64,000 nt of DNA from Candidatus Omnitrophota bacterium (GCA_043812495.1 JBDRMG010000018.1:7651-71650); one strand, 5' to 3'; shown: positions 7,195 to 20,489, counted from the first letter of the stretch. Made by a program: numbers and translations. The notes: generated by a model from the letters alone, not told the origin.

Positions 7195-8736
7195 TTAAAT
7201 TTTCGGAACCTTGCCGATCATATAAAAATCTTCCGGTTTGACCTTATCGAAATCTCCGCTTAAGACTCTTGCGCAGCCTGCAACGTTCTCTTCAATCGTG
7301 ACAAATTCTCCTTTTTTTCCGGTGAAAACCTCGCTCACGGTAAACGGCTGTGTCATGAAATTAAAAAGCTTCTGCGCCCGTCCGTAAATCAAGCGGTCTT
7401 CTTTATTCAACTCCTCAACACCGATAACAGCCACAATACGTTTGAGTGAATTGTATTTGTTAAAGTGAGAAATAACGCTTTGGGCCACATCAAAATGTCT
7501 GCGGCCGACAATCGTTGTATCCAAATTAGAACAAGAACTTAAGGTCGGATCAATAGCCGGATACATACCGCGCTGAACTAAATCGCGCGAAAGGACAACA
7601 ACGCCGTCCAGATAGCTAAAAATGGCCACGACCGCGGGATCTGTCATGTCATCGGCCGGAACATAAACAGCTTGAAGAGCGGTCACGGAGCCACCGCCTT
7701 CAATGGAACGGATTCTTTCCTGAACATAACTGACCTCGGAGGCCAGGGTGGGCTGATAACCCGTTTCCGCCGGAACACGTCCCAAAAGCGTAGACACTTC
7801 TTGGCCCCCTTGCACAAACCGAAACAAATTATCCATAAACAATAAAACGTCCTTGTTTCTCGATTGAATATATTCCGCAAGCGTAATGCCTGTGTTGACA
7901 ACTTCGGCGCGCGCCCCGGGCGGTTGATCCATTTGTCCGAAAGCCATCATAACTTTCCCAATCAAGTTATGCTCTGATAACTCGTGAAACAGCTCATTTC
8001 CTTCGCGGATGCGCTCACCAATACCGGTAAAAACACAAGCCCCGCTGTGCGCCTTGACAATATTGTTCATCAACTCCAAGATAACGACGGTCTTCCCGCA
8101 GCCGGCTCCTCCGAGAATCCCTGTCTTGCTTCCTTTGACAAGAGGAAAAAGCAGATCCAAATATTTCATGCCCGTCTCAAGCACCTCTGCCTTTTCACCC
8201 TTTTTTCTCTTCAGATCAAATCCCTGCTGCTTATTGAATTTCCGAATCGGGGTTGTCATCGGGGCATTGATATCCCCTCCTTTATCCAGGGGCCGACCGA
8301 CCGCATCCATAACCCGTCCAAAACATTCATCTCCGATGGGAATAGCAATAGGTAAAAATGTGTTGTAGCACTCGGAGTTGAGCTGCAAGTTTAACGTATC
8401 CATCAAGGAAACCGTCCGAACCACTTCTGTGCTTAAGTGCTCCGCGCATTGTAAGATAATCCTACGCTTGTCAAAGGTATAGGCTTCGATCACATCATAA
8501 AGAGCCGGAATATCCTCCAAGCTCTCAAAAAAAACATCAACGACAGGGCCTTGGCAAGAAACAATTCTCCCTTTTCCTTTGCGCTCTTGACCTGTTTGGC
8601 CAACAGGGCTTCCTTCAGCCTTCTTCACTGGCTGTTGACTATTATGATCGTTATCCGGCGGAATGTTGTCTTCGGGTCTTTTCGTATCCATTACTTTTAA
8701 AAAATCCTCCGCTAATGATATGCTGCTGAGTTCCAA
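7195..8736 (-). CDS. atpD: F-type ATPase beta subunit (divergent, N-terminally extended)
   Basis: P-loop [25 protein letters not shown]. Catalytic GER in [19 protein letters not shown]. Walker [18 protein letters not shown] in place of DELSEED. About 55 extra N-terminal residues and a short insert before the P-loop relative to canonical beta. Confidence 0.85.
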
Positions 8737-8754
8737 TAGAGTCTGAACAATTTA

Positions 8755-9606
8755 TTATCTCTTCGTCATCATTCTCGCTGTAAAGACTTCGCGCATACTT
8801 TTGTCAATATCGCCTTTTTTGGCCTTGCCAAAAGACATCTGAACACCTTTTTTTTGCTTCTGCATTTTCTGCAAGCTCGATTCTAATTGCTGAGACTGGG
8901 CCGCCGCTTCCGAGATGGCCGTATCATGCAGCATTTCGTAAATACGGCAGACAATCCACATATCGGCCAAGTAACCGATAATATCAACGGGATCAGACTC
9001 TTCAATCACCTTCTCGATGGTCTCCACAAAATCGGCTTGTTTGGTTAAGAGTTCCTCACAAGGAAGCAATTTGACAACGCGAGGTTTTTGTATCATAAAG
9101 TTCTTTGACCAGGGATAGACAACATTCGCTCGGCCGATTTTTCCGGTCATGATTTGTTCGATCAAATGATCCTTGATGTGGATGGCCGTCTCATAGAGCC
9201 CCGTTTCTTCAATATCTTCAAAAACCTTCATCTCGACACCCGGCCTTGCCATCTTAACGGCTCCTTTGCGCCCACAGGCAATCAAGAAAGAGTCTTTGTA
9301 TTTGCTTTGTTCGCTTAAGGCCGCACGGATAACGCGGCTATTCAGATCACCCATAAAGCCCGCTTCCGACGTGATCACCACGATTCCTGTAGCCGGATTG
9401 TCATTGGACACAAGCGGGTGCCTGACCCTTGAAAGACTGATCATGCGGAAAAATTCGACAAAAGACTCCCCAAAACGGGCAAAACGATCTTTTCGGTTGG
9501 CCAGCGTATGAAATTTATTGTCCGCAACGTCTTTAAGAACCTGGATGATTTGAAGCAACTCGATAATATCATCCAGATCGCCTTTAATTTTATTGGCTTT
9601 TCCCAT
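8755..9606 (-). CDS. atpG: F-type ATPase gamma subunit
   Basis: 283 aa. ...VVITSEAGFMGDLN... (the ITSDRGLCG equivalent). C-terminal helix ...REVFTARMM. Sits between the b/delta fusion and beta. Confidence 0.75.
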   Translation of the reverse strand: MGKANKIKGDLDDIIELLQIIQVLKDVADNKFHTLANRKDRFARFGESFVEFFRMISLSRVRHPLVSNDNPATGIVVITSEAGFMGDLNSRVIRAALSEQSKYKDSFLIACGRKGAVKMARPGVEMKVFEDIEETGLYETAIHIKDHLIEQIMTGKIGRANVVYPWSKNFMIQKPRVVKLLPCEELLTKQADFVETIEKVIEESDPVDIIGYLADMWIVCRIYEMLHDTAISEAAAQSQQLESSLQKMQKQKKGVQMSFGKAKKGDIDKSMREVFTARMMTKR

Positions 9607-9621
9607 ACAGCAATCCTTTGA

Positions 9622-10365
9622 TCAAGCGCCTTCGGCTCCTTCTTTTAAACTGACAGAAGTTTCCGTAATCAGATTCTGCAAACTTGCGTCCAAGGCCAAA
9701 CTGCCAAACCGTAAGACCACTCCTCCGATCACCTGAGGATCGACAGTCGTTTTGATATCGATGGTGCGCCCTAATTTCTCTTTAATAATATCGGAAATCT
9801 TTTTCTTGATATCTTCGGGCAAAGTACTTGCAACAATGATTTCCGCTGTTTCGATGTCTTTGCCGATTTGTGTCATGTCCACTTTTGTAAGACTCGCGAT
9901 AAACTCATCGGACAGTTGTTGATTGAGCAGGCCTCTGGCTTTCTCGCTTAAGACCTTCGAAAGTAAATCACCGGCATAGGTAATCATTTTGAGCTCAACT
10001 TCTTTTTTGACCTCAGAGCGCATCTGATCTTTTGTTCTCTGAGCCTTGGCGATGATCTCCTCGCTTTCGAACCTGGCTTTCTTGACAATTTCATCCCGTT
10101 CGGCCTTGGCTTTTTTATCAGCTTTTTCCAGCATCTTTTTGGTCAGTTCATCGGCCTCTTTCTTTCTTTTCTCAAGTTCCTCATTGGCGGCCTTGATCTT
10201 CTGGTCCAATTCTGTTTGCTTGGCCCTGGCTTCTTCCGTTTCGCGGTTAAGCCGTTTGACCGCTCCTTCTGTTTGCGAAACAAAAACATTTCGTAAAGTA
10301 AAAATAATGACACCCACCGCGACGACTTGCAGGAGCATAAATTTAAAGATCCACATCCAGGTCAT
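9622..10365 (-). CDS. F-type ATPase peripheral-stalk fusion: subunit b (TM + coiled coil) fused to delta/OSCP C-terminal domain only
   Basis: N-terminal TM MTWMWIFKFMLLQVVAVGVIIF. About 120 aa of charged coiled coil. C-terminus ...LGRTIDIKTTVDPQVIGGVVLRFGSLALDASLQNLI matches the delta C-terminal domain (E. coli ...[30 protein letters not shown]). The delta N-terminal helical bundle is absent. Confidence 0.75.
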   Translation of the reverse strand: MTWMWIFKFMLLQVVAVGVIIFTLRNVFVSQTEGAVKRLNRETEEARAKQTELDQKIKAANEELEKRKKEADELTKKMLEKADKKAKAERDEIVKKARFESEEIIAKAQRTKDQMRSEVKKEVELKMITYAGDLLSKVLSEKARGLLNQQLSDEFIASLTKVDMTQIGKDIETAEIIVASTLPEDIKKKISDIIKEKLGRTIDIKTTVDPQVIGGVVLRFGSLALDASLQNLITETSVSLKEGAEGA

Positions 10366-19232: not shown

Positions 19233-19293
19233 TGATTCTCCTTAGCGCTATCCATTCTTTTTTTCATACAAAGATTCTTCCTAGAGCCATGCC

Positions 19294-19869
19294 TTATCTA
19301 TTTGATGTGTATTCTAAAGTCACTGCCCTCAGTTCTAAATCCGTTGTTGCCGTATCGTCACTATCGCTGGGATCTCTCTTGATTCTCAAACGGACCCAAT
19401 CATTGGCAGCCATACTATCGTCATTGGCTAACGAAATGCTTATCTCATCTAAGATGCCGGCTGTTCCGGGGACGGTTGTCCCCCCCAAAACTTCATTGAG
19501 AGAATCAAACTGAACGGCGGAGTCCGGATCGCTTTCATCATCGGAAAGGGCGTGCACATAGACCTCCATATCGACTTTTCCGCTTGTCGCTGATACCATT
19601 GTATACAATAACTTGATGACAGGAGCGGAAGAATAATCTTGCGGTAGAGCAAATATAAACTCGACTATTTCCCCCAATGATGTTCCATCAAATAACAGGC
19701 GCCAGGCTCCGTTTTGAGCATCCAGGTTGGGAAGATTTGTCATTCCATGAAATTTTGCGGCTTCGATGGGTAATATCAGCGTTGCTGTCGCTGTCCCGGC
19801 ATAAGCCGCTCGGTTAAAAAGACCCACCGATATCAATGTGAACATGAATAAAAAGATATAACGTTTCAC
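19294..19869 (-). CDS. Secreted hypothetical protein, paralogue 2 of a tandem triplet
   Basis: 191 aa. Signal peptide (…NRAAYA|GTATATLILPI). Same conserved blocks and C-terminal LELRAVTLEYTSNR. Confidence 0.6.
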   Translation of the reverse strand: MKRYIFLFMFTLISVGLFNRAAYAGTATATLILPIEAAKFHGMTNLPNLDAQNGAWRLLFDGTSLGEIVEFIFALPQDYSSAPVIKLLYTMVSATSGKVDMEVYVHALSDDESDPDSAVQFDSLNEVLGGTTVPGTAGILDEISISLANDDSMAANDWVRLRIKRDPSDSDDTATTDLELRAVTLEYTSNR

Positions 19870-19898
19870 GCGATCTCCTTATGTTTAATTCGTTATAT

Positions 19899-20489
19899 TT
19901 AATTCGTTGTATATTCCAATGAAAATGCTCTAAGTTCTAGGTCACTGGCGGAGGTATCATCAATGTCGTCATGATCTCTGTTGACTCTAATAATCACTAA
20001 ATCATTAGCGGCTACGCTATCGTCATTGGTTAATGTTATGCTAATGGTATCGATTTTCCCGAGTGTTGTCGGCACGGTTGTTCCTCCTGAGATCTCATTG
20101 ACCGCACCAAAACTCGCTGTGTCTGGATCGCTTTCGCCATCTGTTAAGGCCATGACTTCGACTTCCATATCTACTTTATTAGTCGTGGTTGACACCATTG
20201 AGTAAAGCAATTTAGCTGTTAATCCGGAGAAATAGTTTTGTGGCATCCGGAACTGCCACGCAGCGCTTTCGGTTTGAGTATCGTCAAACAATAATCTCCA
20301 TGACAAAGTTGAGTTATTGTCAATTCTTGCAGGATTGGTAATGAAGCTACCGTTGATTTTGGCAGTTTCAACGGGTAGAACAATGGTTGCGGTGGTCCCG
20401 GCGTATATACAACGCGCGGTGATTAAGAACAAAACATTAATTACTATTATTAAAGTTATTAAAGTAATCAATAGAATTCGTTTTGTCAC
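19899..20489 (-). CDS. Secreted hypothetical protein, paralogue 3 of a tandem triplet
   Basis: 196 aa. GTG start (rc of cac at 20487-20489) preceded by AAGGAGGG. Signal peptide (…ITARCIYA|GTTATIVLPV). Same conserved blocks and C-terminal LELRAFSLEYTTN. Confidence 0.6.
   Translation of the reverse strand: MTKRILLITLITLIIVINVLFLITARCIYAGTTATIVLPVETAKINGSFITNPARIDNNSTLSWRLLFDDTQTESAAWQFRMPQNYFSGLTAKLLYSMVSTTTNKVDMEVEVMALTDGESDPDTASFGAVNEISGGTTVPTTLGKIDTISITLTNDDSVAANDLVIIRVNRDHDDIDDTSASDLELRAFSLEYTTN

Follow-up and report, generated by a model that had tools for sequence, protein, structure and literature searches.

Loci that combine "symbiotic", non-respiratory F-type ATPases with T4aP genes have been reported from all Omnitrophota classes by Seymour et al. 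(2023, PMC10066038), who found the ATPase within 10 kb of T4aP genes on 57 of 66 contigs, set its alpha subunit apart from respiratory enzymes and suggested a role in attachment or motility. V/A-type ATPases are found in most Gorgyraeia. In outline, the arrangement analysed here has been known since that study: our locus is a further example from the same phylum, with the same co-location of ATPase and type IV filament genes, although the filament is called T4aP there and its components score as T2SS-like here (GspC, GspG and GspK). The searchable text and supplements of that study do not mention a missing a subunit, two c genes, a b-delta fusion, an obligatory fibre and anchor lying between pilus genes and ATPase, or a phage-like tip. 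As far as we found in the literature searched, the missing a subunit, the obligatory fibre and anchor, and the swappable phage-like tip have not been described.

Further candidates for the closest system are the Type 2 (gliding, M. mobile G1-ATPase) and Type 3 (F1-like X0, MIB-MIP) clusters of Mycoplasma, in which an F1-type ATPase, additional to the main energy-conserving one, is genetically tied to large surface proteins and is thought to play a mechanical or accessory role rather than to synthesize ATP (Beven et al. 2012, PMC3369863; Berlureau et al. 2026, PMC12994834). These clusters contain alpha-, beta-, gamma- and epsilon-like genes and three unrelated proteins (with 3 and 12 transmembrane helices among them) but no c, b or delta (PMC3369863; PMC12994834). 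The link between an F1-type ATPase and large surface proteins is common to both systems, whereas our locus retains c, b and delta, with a beta whose match to canonical F1 outscores that to the G1-ATPase. Furthermore, the Mycoplasma hosts have neither an outer membrane nor a secretin.

The flagellar and type III export ATPases (FliI-FliJ-FliH/SctN-SctO-SctL) likewise have an F1-related ATPase, with partners resembling gamma and b/delta, at an export machine, the FliI-FliJ-FliH/SctN complex being an F1 relative docked at the secretion gate. However, they are homohexamers with no alpha/beta alternation and no c-ring, in contrast to the full alpha-beta-gamma-epsilon-c-b-delta set found here, and they are only distant PDB matches of our beta (about 122 bits). 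The N-ATPase (atpDCQRBEFAG), reportedly recognized by Dibrova and colleagues in 2010 as a second, laterally mobile F-type operon, resembles our locus in its non-canonical gene order, but is said to retain a, to have AtpQ and AtpR and to lack delta, whereas here a is missing, b and delta are fused, and the order is alpha, epsilon, c, c2, b-delta, gamma, beta. Finally, the giant Omnitrophota "Archaeovorin" and "Dockerin-type" proteins, for which prey adhesion was proposed, adjoin T2SS/Tad-like loci (West-Roberts et al. 2023 preprint). They too are very long surface proteins beside type II/IV secretion-like genes in the same phylum, but they have many transmembrane segments, SecA-like and enzyme domains and a Tad/RcpC-type neighbour, with no ATPase mentioned; in our fibre, a single signal peptide is combined with an array of 13-residue repeats, and the anchor is a separate protein.

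Conservation of the locus across Omnitrophota

The window, that is, the whole stretch of DNA analysed (64,000 nucleotides, one strand), is from an uncultured organism, Candidatus Omnitrophota bacterium (GCA_043812495.1 JBDRMG010000018.1:7651-71650). Between its secretin/TPR genes and its GspE-F-G-K genes, a block on the minus strand (7195-20489) encodes three paralogues, a 1324-aa LamG/13-residue-repeat protein (the fibre), a 455-aa protein and an F-type ATPase set consisting of alpha, epsilon, c, a second c, a b-delta fusion, gamma and beta (Table 1). All genes named in the initial annotation were found where it had placed them, all on the minus strand; the block measures 13,295 bp, not the ~13.7 kb given there. 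Its GC content (0.42-0.51) is not distinct from that of the surroundings.

Table 1. Features of the locus, listed from high to low window coordinates.
Feature	Coordinates	Strand	Evidence
Membrane-anchored OSCP/delta-like 128-aa protein, upstream of locus	28381-28767	-	Pfam OSCP 6.3e-13
MshM/GspA-like AAA ATPase, start of secretion half	24385-25326	-	Pfam AAA_22 9e-20
GspC-like protein	23606-24373	-	Pfam T2SSC 5.9e-8; position kept in relatives
Outer-membrane secretin	21978-23609	-	Pfam Secretin 2.4e-49, Secretin_N, STN
Coiled-coil and TPR protein, MshN-like position	20789-21937	-	Pfam TPR_1, TPR_11; position kept in relatives
Triplet of secreted paralogues, CBM-like with a beta-jelly-roll (196, 191, 188 aa)	19899-20489, 19294-19869, 18666-19232	-	
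Fibre protein, 1324 aa	14667-18641	-	Pfam Laminin_G_3 6.5e-21
455-aa protein	13291-14658	-	AF2 model, pLDDT 83.6; gene order
F1 alpha	11663-13204	-	Pfam ATP-synt_ab 3e-70
345-bp spacer, GC hairpins and dispersed repeat element copies	11318-11662	.	
Epsilon, N-terminal beta-sandwich only	10991-11317	-	Pfam ATP-synt_DE_N 1.4e-11, residues 8-81
c subunit c1, conserved membrane Glu	10733-10954	-	Pfam ATP-synt_C
Second, divergent c-like hairpin c2	10469-10713	-	Alignment to relatives
b-delta fusion, peripheral stalk, one N-terminal transmembrane helix	9622-10365	-	Pfam OSCP 4.6e-12, ATP-synt_B 4.9e-6
Gamma	8755-9606	-	Pfam ATP-synt 2.6e-31
Beta	7195-8736	-	Pfam ATP-synt_ab 1.7e-66; PDB matches
164-bp spacer, complete hairpin-plus-TATAAT element, immediately upstream of GspE start codon	7031-7194	.	
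GspE-type assembly ATPase, MshEN N-domain and C-terminal PilZ	4808-7030	-	Pfam T2SSE 3.8e-132, MshEN, PilZ
GspF platform protein	3576-4784	-	Pfam T2SSF 5e-64; NCBIfam GspF
Secreted Peptidase_MA family metalloprotease	2747-3556	-	Pfam Peptidase_MA_2
GspG major pseudopilin	2283-2771	-	Pfam T2SSG, N_methyl and T2SSK (this gene, the minor pseudopilins and GspK taken together); NCBIfam 155 vs cutoff 88.85 bits (passes)
Two minor pseudopilins	1856-2407 and 1201-1809	-	See GspG
GspK	155-1204	-	See GspG

The comparison set comprised 27 genome-derived loci, retrieved with the 455-aa protein as anchor, 43 metagenome loci, retrieved independently with gamma, and one divergent locus (L186). About 70 Omnitrophota loci share, without exception, the order fibre, 455-aa protein, ATPase, GspE-GspF-GspG, which is maintained at 32-56% identity of the 455-aa protein; the 455-aa gene lies directly between the fibre and ATPase genes in the 27 and the 43 loci, and all three are always flanked by the secretin/TPR half on one side and the GspE-F-G-K half on the other. 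In L186, the ATPase genes run epsilon, c, b-delta, alpha, alpha', gamma, beta, again flanked by secretin/TPR and GspE/F/G genes, and the association is retained despite this rearrangement and a fusion of fibre and anchor. In three relatives (L031-L033), the upstream, secretin-side half is syntenic, as are the flanking genes gcvP, lplA and that of an S41 peptidase; the conservation may therefore partly reflect plain vertical inheritance.

With fibre, 455-aa protein and ATPase genes between the gsp halves in 27 + 43 + 1 loci, the comparison favours the composite system proposed initially. The opposite outcome considered at the time, a block absent or variable in relatives, applies to the triplet and the LamG tip, which vary, but not to the core of fibre, anchor and ATPase, which is present in every related locus and thus is not strain-specific cargo. 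Overall, the initial interpretation is partly supported: the comparison favours a conserved composite system, but not the membership of the triplet, and the single promoter is unsupported.

Fibre, anchor and variable tip

The fibre protein consists of a signal peptide, a LamG tip (residues ~35-185), an Ig-like region, an array of 41 exact 13-residue copies (G-[IV]-N-W-x-D-[IL]-x-x-[LM]-[ST]-x-x, residues 527-1065) and, at its C-terminal end, a conserved, putative docking region (1059-1323) that is collinear with the fusion protein P0319. Its homologues range from 1276 to 6919 aa, with visible repeats numbering up to at least 238, and the LamG tip was not found in those of the relatives compared.

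The 455-aa protein, for which a Pfam search returned no match, has 71 close homologues and 981 profile matches. In the AF2 model, a signal peptide is followed by two copies of a 7-strand beta-sandwich with a 3-helix bundle, a long helix and, at the C-terminal end, a transmembrane helix with a short cytoplasmic tail, so that the protein is predicted to be a bitopic inner-membrane anchor. Both the alignment and the model confirm the internal duplication noticed initially. In P0319 and P0351, the anchor is fused to the fibre and forms its C-terminal part. P0319, from L186, unites the two in a single 1851-aa protein collinear with the gene pair of the window: fibre residues 1059-1323 correspond to P0319 1160-1397, and anchor residues 29-428 to P0319 1397-1836. 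The spacers in the window are 8 nt (fibre/anchor) and 86 nt (anchor/alpha), compared with 3-30 nt in relatives.

The triplet had been suggested as a possible component of the system, which is not the case: relatives carry two FGE-sulfatase-like genes in the same slot, and the family to which the triplet belongs is one of phages. Nor does the triplet co-occur elsewhere with the repeat protein, its partners in phages being LamG proteins. The tip module resembles lectins and has relatives among viral fibre proteins. As an accessory or tip module derived from phages, the triplet is specific to this lineage and, together with the LamG tip, makes up a lineage-specific phage-derived CBM-like pair in a variable slot.

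ATPase module and secretion genes

An F-ATPase module is present as annotated, but it is missing the a subunit and has two c-type genes, the second frameshifted in the assembly. Alpha lacks the canonical N-terminal helix, which is the delta-binding part (the PDB alignment begins at residue 23-31 of canonical alpha), and motif alignments place a Lys at the Arg-finger position in the window and in most members. From E. coli mutant studies, such a replacement is expected to slow catalysis strongly. In beta, the catalytic motifs are intact, and the N-terminus carries a variable extension of ~55 residues. Epsilon is devoid of the C-terminal inhibitory/regulatory helices, with no Pfam match to the C-terminal domain and a tail that is not conserved across loci. 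The best-conserved protein of the locus is c1, which is 67-91% identical between loci and has an invariant Glu. The frameshift in c2 falls at a run of five T; in relatives, c2 is one intact ORF, to which the reconstructed window sequence aligns through the break. No gene for the a subunit was identified in the module of the window or at any of the ~70 loci, the rearranged L186 included, and the tight gene spacing leaves no room for one at the locus. Furthermore, neither c2 nor the helices of b-delta and the anchor showed a conserved Arg embedded in the membrane. The OSCP/delta-like 128-aa protein, with a homologue at the equivalent position in L033, is possibly a further stalk component.

The secretion genes had been compared with msh loci. 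The MshM/MshN-like positions of the AAA and TPR genes and the MshEN domain of the assembly ATPase agree with this, but the machine, with GspC-like, secretin, GspE, GspF, GspG, GspI-like and GspK components, is closer to a T2SS than to the MSHA pilus. As in classical systems, relatives have a PilM-PilN fusion and a PilO/GspM-like gene, located after GspK. Unlike in those systems, 13 kb of non-Gsp genes interrupt the operon in the window, GspE has an additional PilZ domain, a Peptidase_MA gene (present in most but not all compared loci) separates gspF and gspG, the locus contains no prepilin peptidase, and the majority of components fall below NCBIfam equivalog cutoffs. The top NCBIfam match of the GspE-type ATPase is GspE; that of the MshM/GspA-like AAA protein, whose gene is syntenic in L031-L033 and L186, is a PEP-CTERM-associated ATPase family, below the cutoff of that family. 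The secretin is 60-71% identical to hundreds of Omnitrophota secretins. The TPR gene probably starts downstream of 21937, because a repeat element occupies 21876-21960.

Intergenic gaps, described initially as short, are uneven; larger ones separate alpha from epsilon (345 bp), TPR from paralogue 1 (299 bp) and beta from GspE (164 bp). Copies of a dispersed hairpin-plus-TATAAT element occur in the 345-bp and 164-bp gaps and in the short secretin/TPR spacer. Most relatives have an alpha/epsilon gap of between a few bases and a few tens only, and the 345-bp spacer could be a lineage-specific internal terminator/promoter. A sole candidate promoter had been placed at 20660-20687. This site is a 9/12 sigma-70 match, of which each scan yields 33-38 equally good ones, and neither promoter-like sites (38 vs 31.6 +/- 5.4) nor terminator-like sites (25 vs 20.2 +/- 5.0) exceed the counts in dinucleotide shuffles; thus, a promoter at that position only is unsupported.

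Possible modes of action

With about even confidence, we propose from these comparisons that the block forms the centre of a single cell-surface apparatus conserved in Omnitrophota, in which a tethered fibre, T2SS-like export and an ATP-hydrolysing rotary motor would be combined. The block may be co-expressed with the secretion genes, and the ATPase may have an energising role. It is unlikely that the module is instead an ordinary ion-translocating F1Fo with its a subunit encoded elsewhere, placed near the secretion genes for co-regulation, for example in a fermentative cell where ATP hydrolysis builds the proton-motive force that energises secretion and pseudopilus assembly. Such an enzyme would account for the invariant c-ring Glu, the exceptional conservation of c1, the complete rotor and stalk, and the scores of alpha and beta against canonical F1, which at about 440-460 bits equal those of canonical enzymes among themselves and exceed the match to the Mycoplasma G1-ATPase beta (334 bits). 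However, Seymour et al. (PMC10066038) placed alpha apart from respiratory enzymes, and here alpha lacks the delta-binding N-terminus and epsilon the regulatory helices. Moreover, an a gene found in none of about 70 loci, even the rearranged one, would have to be encoded apart from its c and b partners, which is unusual.

We consider it decidedly unlikely that the ATPase serves as an engine to export or unfold the giant fibre, in the manner of FliI-FliJ-FliH/SctN of type III secretion. The recruitment of F1-type ATPases to protein export has precedent, the ATPase genes come straight after those of fibre and anchor, and fibres reach 6919 aa, but the ordinary N-terminal signal peptides of fibre and anchor suggest Sec export, a T3SS-like ATPase needs neither a c-ring nor a membrane b-delta stalk, and the locus contains no export-gate homologue. 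Very improbable is the possibility that fibre/anchor, ATPase and gsp genes are three independent, functionally uncoupled systems kept adjacent by inherited gene order. The synteny of the housekeeping flanks gcvP and lplA in three relatives is compatible with it, as are the elements at the alpha/epsilon and beta/GspE junctions of the window that may act as internal terminators/promoters; yet the order persists at 32-56% anchor identity, co-location extends to all classes (Seymour et al., PMC10066038), L186 keeps the association through ATPase reshuffling and fibre-anchor fusion, and in every locus the gsp cluster is split exactly round these genes, with spacers of 3-30 nt in relatives. It is scarcely credible that a T2SS operon received the entire block as strain-specific cargo: one part of this is true, the triplet and LamG tip being of phage origin and absent from relatives, but every related locus compared has fibre, anchor and ATPase, and the GC content of the block is like that of its surroundings. 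For the core, this explanation is refuted by its presence in 27 + 43 loci.

A hydrolysing motor, as in the apparatus that we propose, would fit the intact beta motifs, the absence of inhibitory helices from epsilon and of the delta-binding N-terminus from alpha, and the conservation of c1. Against it count the invariant c-ring carboxylate, which suggests ion binding that normally requires an a subunit, and the Lys at the alpha Arg-finger position in most members. In the proposed apparatus, the fibre would be exported by Sec, tethered to the inner membrane via the 455-aa anchor and brought to the cell surface through the secretin with the assistance of the pseudopilus machine, whose GspE bears c-di-GMP-binding domains. 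The variable N-terminal tip and accessory lectin-like proteins, here the phage-derived LamG domain and three CBM-like proteins and elsewhere FGE-sulfatase-like proteins, could bind glycans on a target cell. The ATPase would run in the hydrolysis direction, without ATP synthesis, and might hand torque or conformational work to the anchor and fibre or to the assembly platform. The outcome could be attachment, movement or pulling on prey, in principle analogous to the way in which F1-like ATPases power giant surface proteins of Mycoplasma.

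Gene content and conservation of the locus

Every gene from ~30.4 kb to position 155 of the window lies on the minus strand. Pfam searches confirmed the gene content that the initial annotation had assigned to the block of paralogue triplet, fibre, 455-aa protein, and F-type ATPase genes, with two corrections: a second c-like gene lies between c and b-delta, the peripheral-stalk fusion, and a gene for the a subunit is absent. At 13,295 bp, the block is shorter than the ~13.7 kb first given; its genes are co-oriented as described, but the gaps are not uniformly short, with spacers of 345, 299, and 164 bp. 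Two of the window proteins, the 455-aa protein and the secretin, have 100% identical counterparts at NCBI, from a "Candidatus Omnitrophota bacterium" MAG.

Features of the window in order of transcription, followed by dispersed elements (window positions)
Feature	Position	Strand	Assignment
S41 peptidase	28767-30395	minus	Pfam
Membrane-anchored OSCP/delta-like protein, 128 aa	28381-28767	minus	Pfam
GT2; DUF2304; methyltransferase; GT2		minus	Pfam
GspA/MshM-like AAA; GspC-like; secretin; coiled-coil/TPR		minus	Pfam
Promoter candidate	20660-20687
Block	7195-20489	minus
Block: three paralogues, 188-196 aa		minus	No family match
Block: fibre, 1324 aa	14667-18641	minus	N-terminal Laminin_G_3 (Pfam)
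Block: 455-aa protein		minus	No Pfam match
Block: F1 alpha, epsilon, c subunit (c1)		minus	Pfam
Block: second c-like gene (c2)	10469-10713	minus
Block: b-delta fusion, gamma, beta		minus	Pfam
GspE with MshEN and PilZ; GspF; Peptidase_MA		minus	Pfam
GspG	2283-2771	minus	Pfam
First minor pseudopilin	1856-2407	minus	Pfam
Second pseudopilin; GspK		minus	Pfam
Dispersed hairpin element, four copies	7036-7190, 11324-11450, 21876-21960, 54530-54669
Exact 39-bp repeat, two copies	11529-11567, 28243-28281

Two gene starts in the window are doubtful. The S41 peptidase ORF (542 aa) aligns to relatives of 402-453 aa only from residue ~155 onward, and its first ~150 codons are of low complexity and overlapped by opposite-strand ORFs; thus, the real start probably lies further downstream. 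The first minor pseudopilin shares 125 nt of its ORF with GspG, and since its prepilin motif begins at residue 49, translation probably starts further inside the ORF, at an internal codon.

Searches anchored on the 455-aa protein recovered 27 loci in Omnitrophota MAGs (34-57% identity), all of which share the order large repeat protein, 455-aa protein, alpha, epsilon, c1, c2, b-delta, gamma, beta, GspE, GspF, GspG, and pseudopilin, with Peptidase_MA between GspF and GspG as a usual, not universal, member. Gamma, used as a second, independent anchor, yielded 43 metagenome loci of at least 5 kb each, in which the same order holds without exception as far as each contig reaches. The upstream half is also syntenic in three relatives (S41, OSCP-like, GT2, DUF2304, MTase, GT2, AAA, GspC, secretin, TPR), and downstream of GspK, in the region beyond the window start, relatives encode a PilM-PilN fusion, a PilO/GspM-like (T2SSM_b-like) protein, and a TPR protein. 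The counter-case, relatives with contiguous gsp genes and no intervening block, was thus not seen as far as fibre, 455-aa protein, and ATPase are concerned, and synteny backs this core of the composite adhesin, secretion, and rotary ATPase system that the initial annotation had proposed.

A profile search with the 455-aa family retrieved 981 cluster representatives, in some of which the family forms the C-terminal part of a much larger protein. One of these, P0319 (1851 aa), encoded in the divergent locus L186, is collinear with two genes of the window: residues 1059-1323 of the fibre align to P0319 1160-1397, and residues 29-428 of the 455-aa protein to P0319 1397-1836. Fibre and membrane anchor are thus a single polypeptide in the P0319 lineage and split genes in the window lineage, where the anchor carries a signal peptide of its own. 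The first half of L186 comprises AAA, GspC-like, secretin, TPR, two FGE-sulfatase-like genes, and the fusion protein; these are followed by epsilon, c, b-delta, alpha, a second alpha, gamma, beta, GspE, GspF, and GspG, with no a subunit in the locus. The survival of the three-way association under an altered ATPase gene order argues for functional linkage and not for a frozen gene order.

The secretion genes in the window include a T2SS core of GspC, D, E, F, G, and minor pseudopilins including GspK (Pfam). Among NCBIfam models, GspG exceeds its cutoff, and GspE, GspF, and GspK match T2SS families best at scores below cutoff. GspE carries an MshEN domain, the MshM-like and MshN-like labels rest on general AAA and TPR domains only, and no prepilin peptidase (GspO) was seen in any locus. 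The secretion genes are best described as T2SS-like with MSH-like features. A classical MSHA pilus is disfavored; the major pilin is GspG-type, and the secretin scores 176 bits against MshL, below its PilQ and GspD scores. A comparison of the window with loci L016-L024 and L136-L168 shows that GspE carries a C-terminal PilZ domain in some lineages (~740-767 aa) and lacks it in others (~576-624 aa).

The F-type ATPase module

Alpha, beta, gamma, and epsilon of a canonical F1Fo enzyme are all present, as judged by Pfam and PDB matches. Both alpha and beta score ~440-460 bits against canonical bacterial and mitochondrial F1; for beta, the score drops from 444 bits with the canonical subunit to 334 bits with its counterpart in the M. 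mobile G1-ATPase. In all loci, beta has an intact Walker A (GGAGCGKT), catalytic Glu, and Walker B, and its N-terminal extension is variable and of low complexity. Compared with the alphas of every related locus, that of the window shows 62-77% identity; it begins to align at residue 23-31 of canonical alpha, with a beta-barrel start in all relatives, so that the N-terminal helix (~first 20 residues) of the canonical F1Fo alpha is missing; in canonical alpha, these ~20 residues bind delta/OSCP. The residue aligned with the catalytic Arg finger (E. coli Arg-376; GIRPAIN motif) is Lys-337 in the window alpha, Lys in most relatives, and Arg in L003, L005, L015, L025, and L186. Epsilon consists of the N-terminal beta-sandwich alone and lacks the canonical C-terminal helical domain.

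The first c-type subunit, c1, matches PF00137, has an invariant membrane Glu, and surpasses all other proteins of the locus in conservation (67-91% identity). By comparison, c2 is divergent (26-56% identity), its Glu is usual rather than universal, and it is absent from L186. In the window, a frameshift at a five-T run (~10575-10580) divides c2 into ORFs of 51 and 30 aa, which points to either an assembly error or a pseudogene; in relatives c2 is a single intact ORF with the loop motif FPSKTPAIQ. Within the window and ~70 related loci, no ORF of the size or with the multiple transmembrane helices of an a subunit was found between alpha and beta. Taken together, these features would fit an ATP-hydrolysing enzyme without the usual ion translocation, a reading from which the conserved c-ring carboxylate does not readily follow. 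Most Gorgyraeia have V/A-type ATPases, and in KEGG-based scans F-type gamma turns up far less often than alpha and beta.

Two further observations concern ATPase subunits. The 128-aa protein encoded beside the S41 peptidase, remote from the ATPase genes, combines an N-terminal membrane helix with an OSCP/delta C-terminal-like domain and has a homolog at the equivalent place in L033, one of the three relatives with a syntenic upstream half; it may be an additional stalk component. The tandem alpha paralogs of L186 (487 and 484 aa; L186 15707-18635) hint at a heteromeric head unlike alpha3beta3.

Fibre, paralogue triplet, and intergenic elements

The fibre comprises a signal peptide, a LamG domain, an Ig-like region, a repeat array, and a C-terminal region that is kept in relatives. 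The array (residues 527-1065) consists of 41 exact 13-residue units, G-[IV]-N-W-x-D-[IL]-x-x-[LM]-[ST]-x-x, a unit that is the hallmark of the family. Homologs range from 1276 to 6919 aa, and the window fibre is among the shortest, with 41 units versus 90 to >238 in relatives (L003, L015, L020, and others), the count of at least 238 being that of the visible part of one locus. Many related contigs end within the fibre gene, and the window copy could have been collapsed by assembly.

Homologs of the three CBM-like paralogs are mostly 164-166 aa long, lack a signal peptide, and start exactly at the predicted mature N-terminus; the three genomic contexts examined were all phage structural modules, and IMG/VR contains 174 matches to the family. 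In at least 29 of 83 phage loci, the paralog homolog is directly followed by a LamG protein of 220-300 aa (sometimes larger), the LamG domain of which is 24-44% identical to the N-terminal domain of the window fibre. The initial annotation had raised the possibility that the triplet accompanies the repeat protein elsewhere; no such co-occurrence was found, and the family instead pairs with LamG proteins in phages. The fibres of relatives lack the LamG domain, and two FGE-sulfatase-like genes occupy the slot of the triplet. Triplet and LamG tip thus form a phage-derived, variable module, the triplet being a lineage-specific addition, and we infer that the slot between TPR and fibre, together with the fibre N-terminus, encodes an exchangeable target-recognition module. 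PHROGs contained no match for the paralogs or the 455-aa protein, and a PDB profile search with the paralog alignment returned none. On phage and viral contigs (L028-L030, L034-L113), the paralog family is widespread and unannotated, with no Pfam or PHROG family covering it, and it sometimes forms the C-terminal domain of a ~600-1,080-aa ORF.

The site proposed as the sole promoter of the block turned out to be a 9/12 sigma-70 match, one among dozens in the window. Neither promoter-like nor terminator-like sites exceeded their numbers in shuffled sequence; the scans are thus uninformative on operon structure and were not used to define operons, and the argument from a sole promoter fails. A dispersed intergenic element was found in which a GC-rich hairpin precedes the motif AAGCAAAT(G/A)CAATTATAATATTTC (four motif matches versus 0 expected). 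Three copies stop 10-25 nt ahead of minus-strand start codons, those of epsilon, GspE, and probably TPR; the fourth lies between two minus-strand genes in the orientation opposite to its neighbors. The element looks like a small mobile or regulatory repeat, and in this strain its copies could provide internal terminators or promoters. In relatives, the equivalent spacers span just 3-30 nt, so that the elements represent a lineage-specific overlay and no part of the design of the system. The exact 39-bp repeat, which contains the palindrome CCGTCAATTCGATAAAATCGAATTGACGAG, occurs in the alpha/epsilon and GT2/OSCP-like spacers. An Rfam scan of the window returned one tRNA and no other match.

Relation to known systems and interpretation

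A non-respiratory F-type ATPase encoded beside type-4a pilus genes has been reported in Omnitrophota, within 10 kb on 57 of 66 contigs and in every class, with an alpha subunit that falls in a "symbiotic" clade apart from respiratory alpha and clusters with Mycoplasma Types 2/3 (Seymour et al. 2023, PMC10066038). In the window, 164 bp separate the end of beta from GspE, and the distance from alpha is 7.6 kb to the TPR gene and 8.8 kb to the secretin gene, which places the ATPase genes less than 10 kb from type IV filament genes, the co-location described in that report. The outline of the composite arrangement has thus been published, and the window adds one more member. The text and the searchable part of the supplements of that study make no mention of a missing a subunit, the c genes, a b-delta fusion, an obligatory fibre/anchor pair, or a phage-like tip; searches of the supplements and of a 2026 preprint yielded no usable mention of an a subunit, and a 2025 paper on a V. 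archaeovorus enrichment is silent on the locus.

The Mycoplasma Type 2/3 systems, to which the published clustering of alpha points, have seven genes, encoding alpha-, beta-, gamma-, and epsilon-like subunits and three non-Fo proteins (3-TM, 12-TM), without b, c, or delta; c, c2, and b-delta are all present in the window module and a 12-TM protein is not, and membership was rejected. Assignment to the N-ATPases was likewise rejected, as the module does not match these enzymes. The giant proteins of West-Roberts et al. are of a different class and are encoded beside a Tad-like system.

The interpretation we favor, from gene order, gene fusion, and sequence features only, combines an anchored fibre, T2SS-like export, and an a-less hydrolysing motor: the fibre would be anchored in the inner membrane, exported through the T2SS-like machine, and coupled to the ATP-hydrolysing F-type ATPase. 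A more detailed model, which we put forward as speculative and on balance rather unlikely, is that an F-type rotary ATPase lost its ion channel (the a subunit), kept the c-ring and stalk, and was re-used as the mechanical motor of a surface organelle in a diderm cell, turning or pulling an inner-membrane-anchored repeat fibre, hundreds of nm long, that would run through a T2SS-type secretin and bear an exchangeable phage-like glycan-binding tip. If this were true, the locus would encode an ATP-driven apparatus for attachment, motility, or predation of a type not characterized before. Should the ATPase act as a motor without translocating ions, F1-type enzymes would have been put to use in surface mechanics a second time, independently of Mycoplasma, and for the first time with the c-ring kept.

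Omnitrophota are widespread and ultra-small and are thought to be predators or parasites. Loci of this type are one of the few phylum-wide candidate "host-interaction" systems, in which a rotary ATPase is linked with a secretion/pilus machine and a giant adhesin-like fibre. The comparisons turn a loose co-location into specific predictions, namely that the ATPase module lacks an a subunit, that fibre and anchor form one functional unit, and that the lectin-like tip is swappable and has counterparts in phages.
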